A DNA stretch of 10,250 bases, taken from contig CAZECW010000175.1 in the NCBI GenBank assembly GCA_964510585.1, positions 1 to 10,250 of the forward strand. Direction: 5' to 3'. The notes beneath the pieces were generated by a model that saw nothing but the letters and a program-made list of their open reading frames with translations, was not told the DNA's origin and ran no database searches. Positions 3,517 through 8,329 of the stretch are shown piece by piece; positions within the stretch are counted from its first letter, which is position 1, and each line of letters opens with the position of its first letter. This DNA is from an uncultured archaeon (GTDB lineage Archaea; Asgardarchaeota; Jordiarchaeia; Jordiarchaeales; Jordiarchaeaceae). The translations under genes and the position numbers were made by a program.

Positions 3517-3831
3517 CTACGTGGCCAATTTTTCCTTACCGAGCTCCACCCAGAACAGTTTTTTGGATAGTTTATACCATATATACAACCACGCCAGCAC
3601 AAGCAATCCTGAAAGAATTATTTGAATAATGTTTCTAATCATACTCCAGAATTCTCCTTGGCCCTGATCGAGCCTATAAGGCGTGGTGAGGTAGTTTATG
3701 ATTAACCAGTATGTTTCTTGAGGCGGCCTCCAGGGAACAATAATCGATTCTATAACTACAAACACTACAGTTATTGTGACCCAAACAAATAGAATTAGCA
3801 ACAAAAGGGGAAAGTACCTTCTGAACTCCAT
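3517..3831 (-). CDS. Small hypothetical membrane protein with two predicted TM helices
   Basis: 104 aa with two long hydrophobic stretches (LLLLILFVWVTITVVFVVIESII and IIQIILSGLLVLAWLYIWY) and a basic tail. It starts 4 bp after the aglH stop and fills the gap between convergent genes. Confidence 0.72.
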   Translation of the reverse strand: MEFRRYFPLLLLILFVWVTITVVFVVIESIIVPWRPPQETYWLIINYLTTPYRLDQGQGEFWSMIRNIIQIILSGLLVLAWLYIWYKLSKKLFWVELGKEKLAT

Positions 3832-3835
3832 TTTT

Positions 3836-4876
3836 TCACCACCAAACCATTAGTATTGCTGTCAAAATGGCTAAGAACGAGCTGAAGAAGCTTAATAGAT
3901 AGAATCCTCTGACAATCTCGGGTTCAGTTAGAGGGCCTCTTGCAAGTATCATACGCACCAAAGGTATGGGCGCCTTTGGATCCTTACTAGCTGCGATTCT
4001 ACCGTCCGGAAGGAGTATAGTTGCCGGAGACTTTACGAGTCTATACTCCATCAATTTTCCCATACTACTCAACATATAGAAAGAATTCATAATGAAGGGT
4101 ATCAGCGCTATAACTGTAACTATCTCTAGCTCTCCCACAATTGCAAGGGCACCAATCGCGGCCCCCACAGTTAAAGAACCCACATCACCCGAAAAAACTC
4201 TAGCCGGGTACCTGTTAAACCTATAGTACGCTATCATAACACCCAGCATTACCGCCGATATAATTATACCTGTTTTTGAATCTAAGAGAACCGAGCAGCA
4301 CAACATAGCTCCAAATGTTATTATAGTGGTTCCCGGCATCACCCCATTCATAATATCCAACATATTCACTGTATTGGAGCAAACAGCCACATTAACTGGA
4401 ACGTATATGGGGTAAAGGATGCTTAACCTGGTTCGCCCAATGAAGGGGAAACGTGGAGAAGAAACTAGGATGGGATAGAAAAAGTTTATTATCAGTAGTG
4501 GGAGGGCGGCAATTACGGTAAGTATGGTTTTCGTGTACGCCCCTAACCTTTTTAAATCATCTATAATGCCCACCGCTCCCGAAGCAGCCACAGTTAATAA
4601 AAACCCTAACAACCTCAATCTAGTAAGGTTGTCCTCAAAGAGTACGGCGGTCAGCGACAAGCCCACAATTATACTAATCAGAATAGCAAGACCCCCCATT
4701 TCTGGTATAACTGGCTTATCGAGTTTATGTACGTCAACCCCCGTAATTTTTAAATCCTTCATCTTTCTCATCACGTGGGGAACCAAAAAATTACAAATCA
4801 GAAAAGAAAAGAAGAACCCAAATATAACATATAAAATTTCAATTGGTTTAAGGTATATCACGCTGCCACCAACCAT
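3836..4876 (-). CDS. aglH: UDP-GlcNAc:dolichyl-phosphate GlcNAc-1-phosphate transferase (AglH/ALG7/DPAGT1-like, glycosyl transferase family 4)
   Basis: Polytopic membrane protein with the PNPT/GPT motifs TGVDVHKLDKPVIPEMGG, GIIDD, NTVNMLDIMNG and YPARVFSGDVGS. A GTG at 4861, preceded by GGTGG, is an alternative start. Confidence 0.88.
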   Translation of the reverse strand: MVGGSVIYLKPIEILYVIFGFFFSFLICNFLVPHVMRKMKDLKITGVDVHKLDKPVIPEMGGLAILISIIVGLSLTAVLFEDNLTRLRLLGFLLTVAASGAVGIIDDLKRLGAYTKTILTVIAALPLLIINFFYPILVSSPRFPFIGRTRLSILYPIYVPVNVAVCSNTVNMLDIMNGVMPGTTIITFGAMLCCSVLLDSKTGIIISAVMLGVMIAYYRFNRYPARVFSGDVGSLTVGAAIGALAIVGELEIVTVIALIPFIMNSFYMLSSMGKLMEYRLVKSPATILLPDGRIAASKDPKAPIPLVRMILARGPLTEPEIVRGFYLLSFFSSFLAILTAILMVWW

Positions 4877-5042
4877 TTAAACCAGTTAAAGCAAGACTTT
4901 TATATCGCAATAAACATTTTACAAACAAAAATTGCACACATTTATATTTATATTAGTATAGCAATATTACCATTTGTGTTCTGGGACAATGCATATTTAG
5001 ATTTCGGTATAATTGTTATAAATCTTGGCCAAAGGTGATTAC
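4877..5042. promoter_or_regulatory. Bidirectional promoter region between aglH and the ribophorin-I-like gene
   Basis: Short AT-rich gap between divergent genes, with TATA-like elements at about 4898-4905 (TTTTATAT) and 4941-4953 (TTTATATTTATAT). SD AGGTGAT at 5033-5039 precedes an in-frame TTG at 5043. Confidence 0.5.
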
Positions 5043-6770
5043 TTGCAAAAAAGCACGGCTGTACTATTGATACTGTTAATTCTAACAATGGGATTCGTAA
5101 TCCTCATAGCACTAAATAGCAACGCCTACTCTCCCGTCTACCACCACCCTATCATTCAAACCACCAACACCGTGACTTTGAAAAACATGGAAATTACATC
5201 CACAGGCAATCTGACTAATAGTTTAGTGCTAAGAAATATCTCCATAAACAATTTCGGCATAGCCACTGTTACAGACACTTTCATAGTGAGAAATGACGGA
5301 ACAAACTCCACAAAATCTGCAAATGTGCTCTACCCCGAGAATGTGTGGTCAGAGCTCATCACGTACACTGCTTGGCACGAGAACATCCAACTTAACACAG
5401 AAAGAATTTTTTCAGGAGGAGTAAATGGAACCCAAATAATATTTCATAAATCGTTATCTCCCGGGGACAACTATACATTTACGTTAAAACAATATTTTAA
5501 AGGCACCCTCAGTACAGTTAGCTCTCAGATGCGGTTTAGCTTCCCCGCTTATCCTTATTCACCCTACCGAACAGAAGAGTGCAGAGTTTCAGTGATATTA
5601 CCTAAAGGCGCTTATTCTACATCCTCTCTAAAATACAACTACGCTAATATATCACCCTTTGACGCCAACAATACCCTAGGAATAAACTTCACGTTTAACG
5701 ATGGGAGTTCTATTGTGTCACTTAAAACAGTCTATAGGCAAGTAACAGTCGATCCCTGGATGGGAATAAATGTGATAGAAGTCCATCTAATAGAAAATAA
5801 GGGGGTTTCAAATCTAAACAAAACCTATTTTCAAGCTCCCGCGGGCACAGTAAAGTTTGAGGCCAATGACGCCGCTGGAACCCTAACATCTTGGCCCGCG
5901 GGCGATAGCGTAGAAATTTATACACGCTACTCGATTCCCCCTAATGGAACCTACGTCTACTACCTTACATACTCCATTCCCATAGCGTTTTCACAAATTG
6001 GCAGCTCTGGAACTTACCTACTCGCCTTTAACATTGTTCCTAACTATGGGGGAATAATTGAAAACTTCTACATCTCCCTGATATTCTCCAACTTCCTAGG
6101 CATATCCTTCCAGAGTCCTCCAACACTACCAATCACCTCAATTAATAAGAACATTTATCTCTACACCTACAAAAACATCATTCCAACACAAAATATATTG
6201 TCATACTTCCTTTACAGCGTCGGATTTCCAAACACCTATCTTCGCCCCCTCACCCTAACGCTAGTATTTGGCTCCGCAGCTGCTGTTTACGCCCTTGTCA
6301 GGTCACGTCGCGTAAAGGCTGCACCAGCTATAGTGAGACCCGCAGAAGTTAAAGCTTCGATTCTCAGCGAATTCCTCAACCTGTATGAAGAAAAGAATAC
6401 GTTAATACTCGAAATGGAACGTTTGCGTGAAGACGCCCTTAGAAAAAAGGTTAGCAAGTTAGAGTATGCCCAAAGAATAAAAAACTCGGAAAAAGAACTA
6501 GCCAGACTTGAAAGTGAAATAAACAAAATAAAGACAAAACTCATAGAAGCAGATAAAAAATATGTGTCAGACATCAGATACTTTGAAATAAATGAGGCAG
6601 ACCGAGAGCAAGCCAAACTGGCTCTACAAAGCCTCAGAAGAAGGTACCTCATGAAACGCCTAGACAAAGAAACCTACCTCAAACTAAAGGAAGCCCAAGA
6701 AAACAAACTCAGAAAAGCAGAATCGAACCTGGACAAAAGAATACAGGACCTACGCAGAGAAACCATCTAA
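5025..6770 (+). CDS. Ribophorin I (Ost1/RPN1)-like type I membrane protein, putative oligosaccharyltransferase accessory subunit
   Basis: Architecture: N-terminal signal/anchor helix, beta-rich extracellular region, one TM helix (LRPLTLTLVFGSAAAVYALV, about 6240-6300) and a charged helical cytoplasmic tail. RQVTVDPWMGINVIEVHLIENKG and RYSIPPNGTYVYYLTYSIP resemble the ribophorin I motifs [23 protein letters not shown] and RFPLFGGWKTHYIVGYNLP (recalled from memory, not searched). The real start may be TTG 5043, which has an AGGTGAT SD. Confidence 0.78.
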   Translation: MAKGDYLQKSTAVLLILLILTMGFVILIALNSNAYSPVYHHPIIQTTNTVTLKNMEITSTGNLTNSLVLRNISINNFGIATVTDTFIVRNDGTNSTKSANVLYPENVWSELITYTAWHENIQLNTERIFSGGVNGTQIIFHKSLSPGDNYTFTLKQYFKGTLSTVSSQMRFSFPAYPYSPYRTEECRVSVILPKGAYSTSSLKYNYANISPFDANNTLGINFTFNDGSSIVSLKTVYRQVTVDPWMGINVIEVHLIENKGVSNLNKTYFQAPAGTVKFEANDAAGTLTSWPAGDSVEIYTRYSIPPNGTYVYYLTYSIPIAFSQIGSSGTYLLAFNIVPNYGGIIENFYISLIFSNFLGISFQSPPTLPITSINKNIYLYTYKNIIPTQNILSYFLYSVGFPNTYLRPLTLTLVFGSAAAVYALVRSRRVKAAPAIVRPAEVKASILSEFLNLYEEKNTLILEMERLREDALRKKVSKLEYAQRIKNSEKELARLESEINKIKTKLIEADKKYVSDIRYFEINEADREQAKLALQSLRRRYLMKRLDKETYLKLKEAQENKLRKAESNLDKRIQDLRRETI

Positions 6771-7161: not shown

Positions 7162-7267
7162 TGGTAGCCCGGCGCAGATTCGAATTCCGCGGCTAAACCA
7201 ATAGTGTGGTTGCACTGCGGTCAAAGGGTCCAAAGCCCTCTATGCTTGTCCGCTACACCACCGGGCT
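7162..7267 (-). tRNA. tRNA-Gln(UUG) with encoded CCA and a 30-nt intron at 53/54
   Basis: Mature 76-nt cloverleaf: AGCCCGG/CCGGGCT acceptor stem with the archaeal Gln A1-U72 pair, D arm GTGT/GCAT, anticodon arm GAGGG-CT-TTG-GA-CCCTT (anticodon 7231-7233), T stem CGCAG/CTGCG, loop TTCGAAT, then A-CCA. 106 nt in total = 76 + 30. Confidence 0.95.
7185..7214 (-). other. BHB-type tRNA intron, non-canonical position 53/54
   Basis: Intron sequence TGCAACCACACTATTGGTTTAGCCGCGGAA. The central helix is CCGC (exon)/GCGG (intron), the bulges are AG|T and AA|T, the exon-side helix is TTTGA/TCGAA, and there is an internal hairpin AACCA/TGGTT. Confidence 0.9.
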
Positions 7268-7372: not shown

Positions 7373-7587
7373 TTAATCTTCTTCTATGGTAATTGCTGAA
7401 TAGTCGCATTGGATTTCGCATGCCCTGCAAACTAGGCACTCGTCTTCAGATACTACCTTTGCTAAATTTTTTTCAAGTTTGTAAACTTCTGCGGGGCAGA
7501 TTTTTACGCGGTAAGGCTGGTGCCTTATTCCTCTACGCACACCCCACAGCCGACGCACTTGTTTTTGTCAACCTTTATTTTCACCAT
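7373..7587 (-). CDS. 2[4Fe-4S] dicluster ferredoxin (61 aa) interrupted by a 29-nt putative BHB intron; exons 7587-7533 and 7503-7373
   Basis: ATG 7587 has SD GAGGAG at 7597-7602. The spliced product is MVKIKVDKNKCVGCGVCVEICPAEVYKLEKNLAKVVSEDECLVCRACEIQCDYSAITIEED, with two CxxCxxCxxxC motifs. Unspliced, the frame stops at TAA 7525-7527 after 20 aa. Confidence 0.88.
7504..7532 (-). other. Putative BHB (tRNA-type) intron in ferredoxin pre-mRNA
   Basis: Insert sequence AGGAATAAGGCACCAGCCTTACCGCGTAA. The central helix is GCGT/GCGT (two G-U pairs), the bulges are AG|A and AA|A, the intron-side pairs are GG/CC, and there is a perfect hairpin TAAGGC-ACCA-GCCTTA. Removal restores the frame and the Cys spacing. 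Confidence 0.8.
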
Positions 7588-7653
7588 TTTCTGGGGCTCC
7601 TCATAAACTGTTTCCTTAACAGTTGTAAGACTGTTACTGGTTTGTTCTTTGTT

Positions 7654-7717: not shown

Positions 7718-8329
7718 TTATTTTAGATTGAATGGTTTCCCCTCATTCAGAATCTTCTTTGGAATATTGTTTTTCCATTTTTCTAAAAAGGCCTTGTCTT
7801 CTTTGGCTTCGCGGAGATCGTCAGGTAGCATGTGGGGTATTGTTTCTATTATGGGATACCATCTGTTGCACTTTTCGCAGATCATTAGGCCCTCCTCTAC
7901 TTCGGCTCGATATAATAGCCAGTTTATCAGGTATATGCTTGTGGTGAGTTCGGAGGTGAGACTTGCTGGGGGCTTTTCCCTTCTAGTTTCCAACGCTTTT
8001 TTTACAAGTTGCGCCGAGGAGGTGCCGCTCAGGTCTTCGATGGTAGTTAATATGTCTAATTTTTCTGCGAATGTTTTGAGGTAGTCTTTAAGCGGTAAAG
8101 GTTCCTTAGTCATCTCGTCCTCTATCTTAACAGTAGATCCTGATTCATCAATTGTGATTCTGCCCTTCAGGGCCTTTTTTAGAAAGAATAGGTCCTTTTT
8201 TTGTATATCCTCAAAAACTTTTTCGAAATCCTCTTGTTTAGTCTCCCAGCTGAAGATTTTAAGCTTAAGAGGGTAACTTTTGCACCCTTCAATGGGGCAA
8301 GCCAGAATATCTAACAACCATAGCTTCAT
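7718..8329 (-). CDS. trm112: Trm112-family methyltransferase activator, long form with a central insertion
   Basis: N-terminal MKLWLLDILACPIEGCKSYPLKL and C-terminal EVEEGLMICEKCNRWYPIIETIPHMLPDDLR are the two halves of the Trm112 zinc-binding domain, separated by a charged insert of over 100 aa. SD GAGGT lies upstream. Confidence 0.85.
   Translation of the reverse strand: MKLWLLDILACPIEGCKSYPLKLKIFSWETKQEDFEKVFEDIQKKDLFFLKKALKGRITIDESGSTVKIEDEMTKEPLPLKDYLKTFAEKLDILTTIEDLSGTSSAQLVKKALETRREKPPASLTSELTTSIYLINWLLYRAEVEEGLMICEKCNRWYPIIETIPHMLPDDLREAKEDKAFLEKWKNNIPKKILNEGKPFNLK

Follow-up and report, generated by a model that had tools for sequence, protein, structure and literature searches.

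Watanabe is said to have described, in 2002, a bulge-helix-bulge (BHB) intron in the cbf5 pre-mRNA of crenarchaea. By 2020, reports of such introns in archaeal mRNAs were confined to cbf5, apart from one in the 5' untranslated region (UTR) of Haloferax HVO_1309 (PMC7714728, 2020). The cbf5 introns of Desulfurococcales and Sulfolobales are short, at 16 to 44 bp, lie within the coding region, and have tRNA-type boundaries; their removal restores the reading frame, and the lineage has many noncanonical tRNA introns and a two-subunit EndA endonuclease (Yokobori 2009, PMC2738675). Here, we describe a comparable element in a ferredoxin gene of an uncultured Asgard archaeon: a 29-nucleotide (nt) insert on the minus strand of a 10,250-nt stretch of DNA (contig CAZECW010000175.1 of assembly GCA_964510585.1, referred to as the window). 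We consider this insert most likely to be a BHB-type mRNA intron that is removed by EndA and the RtcB ligase.

Like the cbf5 introns, the ferredoxin insert is short, interrupts a coding region at tRNA-type boundaries, and restores the reading frame upon excision, and a two-subunit EndA is likewise suggested for its lineage, which also has many noncanonical tRNA introns. It differs in its host gene and in its host, which belongs to the Asgard class Jordarchaeia/Freyarchaeia. The splicing of crenarchaeal cbf5 has been shown experimentally, whereas we infer that of ferredoxin. Unlike the lone cbf5 case, the ferredoxin gene has company: such inserts are also present in the cbf5 gene of this genome and in at least 13 further protein genes. 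The ferredoxin intron appears to be of a kind that is known but very rarely documented, and that is apparently common in this genome.

Three other described systems share features with this locus. The HVO_1309 mRNA of Haloferax volcanii is likewise processed by the tRNA splicing endonuclease, and removal of its intron was reported to be important for expression, but this intron lies in the 5' UTR of a euryarchaeal gene and breaks no reading frame (PMC7714728). Freyarchaeia/Jordarchaeia carry an extreme tRNA-intron load, with 92 to 95% of their tRNA genes interrupted (PMC11291895; 10.64898/2026.10.13.758758). The ferredoxin insert shares the predicted motif and the cut rule of archaeal noncanonical tRNA introns (Thermoproteales; Freyarchaeia and Atabeyarchaeia), as well as the lineage, and it falls into the size class of the 30-nt intron in the tRNA-Gln gene 290 nt downstream, but its host RNA is an mRNA and its exon-side helices are made of codons rather than of a tRNA stem. 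In PMC11291895 and 10.64898/2026.10.13.758758, which describe tRNA introns, we came across nothing on introns within protein-coding genes, and our literature searches for such reports found none. In eukaryotes, XBP1 and HAC1 also contain a short intron that shifts the reading frame (26 nt in XBP1) and that a protein endonuclease cuts at stem-loops, and the XBP1 exons of animals are joined by RtcB, altering the protein made. Their nuclease is the stress sensor Ire1 rather than EndA, and they form a regulated switch, whereas regulation is not indicated for ferredoxin; we draw a likeness here and claim no membership.

The interrupted ferredoxin gene and its relatives

A dicluster ferredoxin of 61 amino acids (aa) is encoded at this locus only when 29 nt (7532..7504) are taken out. 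Read through, the frame that begins with the ATG at 7587 yields 20 aa (M-V-K-I-K-V-D-K-N-K-C-V-G-C-G-V-C-V-E-E) and then meets a TAA within the insert. A second frame is open from the GTG at 7558 to the TAA at 7373 and encodes I-C-P-A-E-V-Y-K along with the complete second C-x2-C-x2-C-x3-C motif. Excision joins GTA G to AA ATC, which yields two full cluster motifs. The BHB cut rule, under which each bulge is cut after its second base, predicts the junction GUAGAAAUC in the joined RNA and the junction-spanning peptide CVGCGVCVEICPAEVYK. A search allowing up to three mismatches found the insert in a single copy in the 3.78-Mb genome, and the pentanucleotide GCGTA stands as a direct repeat at both of its ends. 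Upon rereading the sequence, the coordinates, the letters, the GCGTA repeat, and the Shine-Dalgarno-like GAGGAG upstream of the start codon are all as the initial annotation described them. The positions of these and other features are listed in Table 1.

The spliced product is a recognizable ferredoxin along its entire length. It matches the Fer4 profile with an E value of 1.9e-11 in an alignment that crosses the junction, and it covers positions 1 to 52 of the 52 positions of Fer4_9, whereas the unspliced alternative frame produces only a partial match (E = 4.9e-4). Uninterrupted homologs from other Asgard families, each a single open frame, are 53 to 58% identical to the spliced product and align to it without gaps. 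Their residue at the junction is Asp or Glu, which fits the Glu that the BHB rule predicts for the genome holding the window (G000) and for G002, one of the other genomes of the genus (G002 to G005).

The GTDB class of this organism comprises 11 genomes. The genus includes five other species; the gene is present in four of them, each with the insert at the same place. Every ortholog that we found has it: G003 and G004 (97% identical), G002 (79%), G005 (75%, a complete genome), and the 427-kb metagenome contig Ga0315314_1000007. The presence of the insert in separately assembled records excludes an assembly artifact. G000, G003, and G004 carry a 29-nt form, and G002, G005, and Ga0315314_1000007 a 28-nt form, with the indel located in the hairpin loop, and the frame relation of the unspliced exons therefore differs among species. 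Even so, the BHB cut rule restores an in-frame C-x2-C-x2-C-x3-C-P in all four distinct lineages. The junction motif after splicing is VEICP, or VKICP in G005.

The exons bear the signature of a protein under selection. Synonymous codon changes equal or exceed nonsynonymous changes in both exons and in every comparison, most clearly in exon 1: the synonymous-to-nonsynonymous counts between G000 and G002 are 7:1 in exon 1 and 12:7 in exon 2, and those between G000 and G005 are 7:2 and 12:12, respectively. All eight cysteines are conserved down to 75% nucleotide identity. The sister family of the class offers only a ferredoxin that is 40 to 45% identical and lies in a different gene neighborhood, and it is probably a paralog. 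No close intron-free ortholog was found, and a search of 5.8 billion proteins returned only the window's own out-of-frame 61-aa open reading frame (ORF).

Predicted fold and splicing machinery

The minimum-energy fold of the RNA spanning 7550..7490 has a free energy of -23.9 kcal/mol (z = -2.3), and 4 of 200 shuffled sequences are equally stable. This fold recovers the GCGU/GCGU helix, the AGA bulge, the GG/CC helix, and the 6-bp hairpin that the initial annotation had described from the letters, and it agrees with the suspicion raised there that the motif is of a relaxed form. Helices flank the motif on both sides: the GG/CC pairs and a hairpin of 4 to 6 bp in the intron, and a single pair followed by a 9-bp helix in the exons. 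Three divergent copies share this architecture in their minimum-energy folds, and the AGA bulge and the 4-bp GCGU/GCGU helix are predicted for every copy. Among 200,000 shuffles of the insert, a 4-bp helix with two inner pairs arises at the exact frame-restoring position in 0.2%, and in only 2.5e-5 when a hairpin of at least 5 bp is also required.

The changes in the relatives are consistent with this structure, in line with the comparative check that the initial annotation had named. In the set of four distinct sequences, pairing holds in 90.9% of cells, compared to 30 to 49% when the partners are slid. One pair is compensatory, a hairpin G-C that becomes A-U, and five further one-sided changes keep pairing. 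The G-U pair at 7506 is replaced by G-C in three lineages, namely, G002, Ga0315314_1000007, and a 97% strain found in sequencing runs X1 and X2, and the latter strain also changes U-A to U-G at 7512. At synonymous exon sites in the outer helix, a U-G pair becomes C-G and a G-U pair becomes A-U. Within the insert, loop positions drift and structural positions are invariant.

Both enzymes expected of this pathway are encoded in the genome. There are two EndA-domain genes (Table 1), the first of which encodes a 192-aa protein that retains the catalytic His and best matches the PDB chain 3p1z_B (E = 2.8e-45). The record name of this chain is tRNA-splicing endonuclease, and we take it to be the catalytic subunit of the Aeropyrum pernix heterotetramer. 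The second, a 198-aa paralog, has Thr at the position of the catalytic His, as would be expected of a structural subunit. Judged from their sequences, the two paralogs suggest a two-subunit (alpha-beta) endonuclease in an Asgard archaeon. Heterotetramer-type EndA has been reported to cut noncanonical motifs (PMC5829648, PMC3241643), and a broad specificity may be proposed for the EndA of this genome by analogy with this literature on the enzyme type. The genome also encodes an RtcB ligase. A group I or group II self-splicing intron was considered and rejected: Rfam models, by which a ribozyme core would be recognizable, have no match in the window, and 29 nt is far too short.

These observations lead us to regard the insert as a strongly supported candidate intron, for which we infer cleavage, ligation, and a constitutive mode of removal. 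In the transcript, GCGU at the 3' end of exon 1 would pair with GCGU at the 3' end of the intron and form a 4-bp ruler helix flanked by the AGA and AAA bulges, with the intron hairpin and the exon-exon GGGG/CCCC helix holding the fold. A heterotetramer-type EndA, composed of the catalytic subunit and the His-less paralog, would cut after the second base of each bulge. RtcB would then ligate the exons to GUA GAA AUC, restoring both the frame and the C-x2-C-x2-C-x3-C-P motif, while unspliced mRNA would yield only the 20-aa peptide.

Several observations weigh against this model. The minimum-energy fold pairs 7505 with 7539, which extends the helix to 5 bp and leaves the 3' side with a bulge of 6 nt; the canonical geometry, with AAA as a 3-nt bulge, belongs to a less stable conformer that is closed by a single U-A pair. 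We describe the motif as relaxed because its 3' side folds as a 6-nt bulge and has the AAA bulge only as an alternative conformer. Cys, Gly, and Pro codons make up both the outer helix (GGGG/CCCC) and the exon strand GCGU, and the conservation of these elements is therefore partly owed to the protein. The covariation is thin, comprising four sequences and one compensatory pair, and its shuffle control is nonsignificant (136/500). The runs with this DNA are labeled hot-spring metagenomes, and contigs from X1 and X2, which are labeled metatranscriptomic, cover the gene unspliced at a flat depth of 7 to 13 with no joints. The X1/X2 material is probably DNA, in which case it has no bearing on splicing either way; the gene is not covered in the RNA run X3, and a look-up of sequencing runs for G005 listed no RNA run containing it. 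The intron also begins only 55 nt past the start codon, and splicing would have to outrun coupled translation.

Table 1. Positions of the ferredoxin gene, its predicted RNA elements, and related features of the genome
Feature	Location	Strand	Details
Interrupted ferredoxin gene	7373..7587	minus	ATG 7587, TAA 7373; 61-aa 2x[4Fe-4S] ferredoxin after intron removal
Exon 1	7533..7587	minus	55 nt, 18 codons plus 1 base; 3' end TGC GTA G; cysteines 1 to 3
Candidate intron	7504..7532	minus	29 nt, phase 1; in-frame TAA two codons past the 5' splice site
Exon 2	7373..7503	minus	131 nt; 5' end AA ATC TGC CCC; fourth Cys of cluster 1 and whole cluster 2
Shine-Dalgarno-like GAGGAG	7597..7602	minus	9 nt 5' of ATG, read from sequence; GAGG invariant in 5 species
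Central helix, 5' strand GCGU (exon 1)	7535..7538	minus	From fold; invariant in 4 lineages
Central helix, 3' strand GCGU (intron end)	7506..7509	minus	7506 is U or C by lineage, either pairs with G
5' bulge AGA	7532..7534	minus	Predicted cut 7533/7532; unpaired in minimum-energy folds of 3/3 divergent copies
3' bulge AAA	7503..7505	minus	Predicted cut 7504/7503; relaxed side of motif
Intron-side structure	7510..7531	minus	GG (7531-7530)/CC (7511-7510); hairpin 7527..7512, 6 bp, loop ACCA
Outer (exon-exon) helix, 5' strand	7539..7548	minus	Synonymous U-to-C and G-to-A changes keep pairs
Outer (exon-exon) helix, 3' strand	7490..7502	minus	A 7502-U 7539; 3 unpaired; 7498..7490/7540..7548 (9 bp, GGGG/CCCC core)
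tRNA-Gln(UUG)	7162-7267	minus	Some 105 nt beyond the stop codon of the ferredoxin gene
tRNA-Gln intron	7214..7185	minus	30 nt, between tRNA positions 53 and 54 (T arm)
EndA, 192 aa	Contig C157; L009 1468-2046	minus	Catalytic His kept
EndA paralog, 198 aa	Contig C126; L010 1192-1788	plus	Thr at catalytic His position
rtcB intron	Contig C58, 3762-3791 (L011 1561-1590)		30 nt, in-frame TGA, between conserved PD and AHQGYG
cbf5 intron	Contig C18, 27688-27718 (L031)		31 nt, bulges AGA/AAA, 5-bp outer helix, splits GHAGTL|DPKVTG
Further interrupted genes	G000 contigs C16, C18, C180, C181, C187, C20, C4 (two sites), C56, C72, C73		

BHB-type inserts in other genes

The closest companion of the ferredoxin insert lies in the same window, in a tRNA-Gln gene that escapes both ARAGORN and Rfam, neither of which found anything in the window. 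Its motif consists of a CCGC/GCGG helix with the bulges AG|U and AA|U. When the 30 nt are removed by the same cut rule, ARAGORN calls a canonical 76-nt tRNA-Gln(UUG) with an encoded CCA. In the metagenome copy of this tRNA gene (L033, about 4310-4400), the intron occupies the same position but differs in sequence. The ferredoxin and tRNA-Gln introns share 3' ends of the form CCGCG-K-AA, a similarity that we dismissed as too short to be meaningful.

The initial annotation had also supposed that further hidden introns exist in this lineage, and a comparison that makes no use of the motif bears this out. We searched all ORFs of a complete 1.42-Mb genome from the same phylum, though distant, against G000 and found 13 conserved protein genes broken by 25 to 33 nt. 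All 13 have a BHB solution with a length equal to the insert implied by homology. They comprise rtcB, cbf5, ppsA, tyrS, ahcY, rpl44e, the alpha subunit gene of 2-oxoacid:ferredoxin oxidoreductase, the protein isoaspartate methyltransferase gene, an Alba-like gene, an aconitase-family gene, and three others. Together with kae1 and the ferredoxin gene, they bring the count to 15 protein genes, with tRNA-Gln in addition; the cut rule found for ferredoxin thus holds on 15 other genes, 14 of them protein coding. This count is a lower bound, as only genes shared with the 1.4-Mb genome are visible to the comparison. Three sites from the same comparison, on contigs C165, C171, and C35, were set aside as read-through gene ends, and several further candidates were rejected for weak alignments. 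A well-conserved protein (278 bits) on the minus strand of contig C3 has a 27-nt in-frame insert with a TAA at about 19184-19211 (strand coordinates). The BHB solutions for this insert are all weak (L 21 or 27), and it may be an intron with an even looser motif or a feature of another kind.

The rtcB motif has a perfect CCCG/CGGG helix with 3-nt bulges; exon 2 enters the profile at position 21, and PD|AHQGYG is re-formed by splicing. RtcB, the presumed exon-joining enzyme, would accordingly appear to need its own mRNA spliced, as read from its gene. Pfam profile coordinates continue across the junction in kae1, cbf5, and ppsA, with the TsaD profile of kae1 running from 8 to 61 and then from 64 to 264, and the PPDK_N profile of ppsA from 3 to 113 and then from 115 to 317. 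In the other introns, the bulges are A-rich and the contiguous exon-exon helices range from 0 to 8 bp (median, 2), with lengths of 0 to 2 bp being common. The weak outer helix of the ferredoxin intron, with one contiguous pair, is therefore not unusual. At 29 nt and with AGA/AAA bulges, this intron is an ordinary member of the set except for two G-U pairs and a loose 3' side.

An ORF-based genome-wide scan for BHB motifs gave counts at the true cut position that were no higher than those at shifted positions. The scan was swamped by the junctions of neighboring same-strand genes, and we used it only for picking candidates, which included kae1, cbf5, ppsA, and rtcB.

If RNA data confirm these introns, mRNA splicing without a spliceosome would be routine in a lineage close to the origin of eukaryotes. 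The ferredoxin gene and 14 more genes of one Asgard genome appear to need the tRNA-splicing pathway to be readable. There is also a consequence for annotation: gene callers and annotation pipelines systematically truncate or miss such genes, and for ferredoxin the databases hold only the out-of-frame 61-aa ORF. The whole ferredoxin motif fits in a 61-nt transcript, which offers a small substrate for probing how relaxed a motif the enzyme accepts.

Alternative explanations and neighboring genes

The intron could be real and yet be removed only conditionally, as a posttranscriptional on/off switch for ferredoxin in the manner of XBP1/HAC1. Splicing efficiency must set the ferredoxin yield if unspliced mRNA produces only the short peptide, the relaxed 3' side could make cleavage rate limiting, and the ligase gene rtcB itself has such an intron. 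A more elaborate form of this explanation, which is doubtful, would have EndA/RtcB capacity set ferredoxin output through rate-limiting splicing, with feedback via the rtcB mRNA intron, as an archaeal counterpart of XBP1/HAC1 in a lineage closely related to eukaryotes. However, the same kind of intron is found in at least 14 other genes, most of them housekeeping (rpl44e, tyrS, kae1, cbf5, ppsA, ahcY, and the Alba-like gene), which suggests a general intron load and makes constitutive splicing simpler than a dedicated switch. We also saw no sensor, alternative fold, or condition-dependent element. We thus consider conditional removal unlikely, and the gene-specific switch put forward in the initial annotation is left unsupported. 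Removal by another nuclease or ligase, or by cuts elsewhere in the A-runs, is a further variation on splicing. The 3' side is not a canonical 3-nt bulge in the minimum-energy structure, and the A-runs at both junctions permit a joint one-base shift that would place Lys where the rule predicts Glu. Yet the 5' bulge, the 4-bp spacing, and the size match those of the 14 other introns and of the tRNA-Gln intron, all of which follow the EndA rule exactly, and the junction residue of the homologs is D or E, in keeping with the prediction of the rule for G000 and G002. This variation is extremely improbable.

Other explanations leave the insert in the mRNA. The ribosome could recode the message, either by a GUA-to-GUA bypass similar to that of gene 60 or by a programmed frameshift. 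In G000, one GUA precedes the insert, a second follows 29 nt later as part of the GCGTA repeat, a hairpin stands between the two codons, and the exon 2 frame is open through the insert back to the GTG at 7558. The bypass in T4 gene 60 combines matching take-off and landing codons with a stop right after take-off. Here, the take-off codon is followed by GAG or AAG rather than by a stop, and G002 and Ga0315314_1000007 have GCA in place of GUA as the landing codon. The needed shift would be opposite in sign for the 29-nt and 28-nt species, and the frameshift product would gain about 10 unconserved residues within C-x3-CP, breaking the cluster motif. The insert also varies as structured RNA does, not as codons do, and recoding is accordingly hard to credit. 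Lastly, the gene could be a pseudogene that arose through a small insertion, possibly of a mobile element with a 5-bp target-site duplication, and was inherited by the genus. Its unspliced reading is indeed frameshifted and meets an in-frame stop, the insert in G000 has GCGTA at either end, and a close intron-free ortholog is missing from our searches. Against this, relatives at 75% nucleotide identity still show the synonymous excess, the eight cysteines, the start codon, and the Shine-Dalgarno-like site, the insert is invariant at structural positions and drifts in its loops, and the insert is single copy, unlike what a mobile element would suggest. The initial annotation had held the target-site duplication in reserve as its fallback, but the second GCGTA is GCGCA in two lineages, and the repeat is explained as the two strands of the self-pairing GCGU helix. 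The conserved insert, the selection on the exons, and the retained cysteines together rule out an assembly error and render a pseudogene highly improbable. EndA- and RtcB-dependent removal of a BHB-type intron remains the explanation that we favor.

Two ORFs elsewhere in the window, of 581 aa (5025-6770, plus strand) and 104 aa (3517-3831, minus strand), have no Pfam match. Upstream of the ferredoxin gene lies a 203-aa Trm112-like gene (7718-8329, minus strand), whose product matches a 40-position zinc-ribbon profile across residues 5 to 161, indicating that the protein has a large insertion. Its relatives are found in records from Jordarchaeia, other Asgard archaea, and Thermoproteota.

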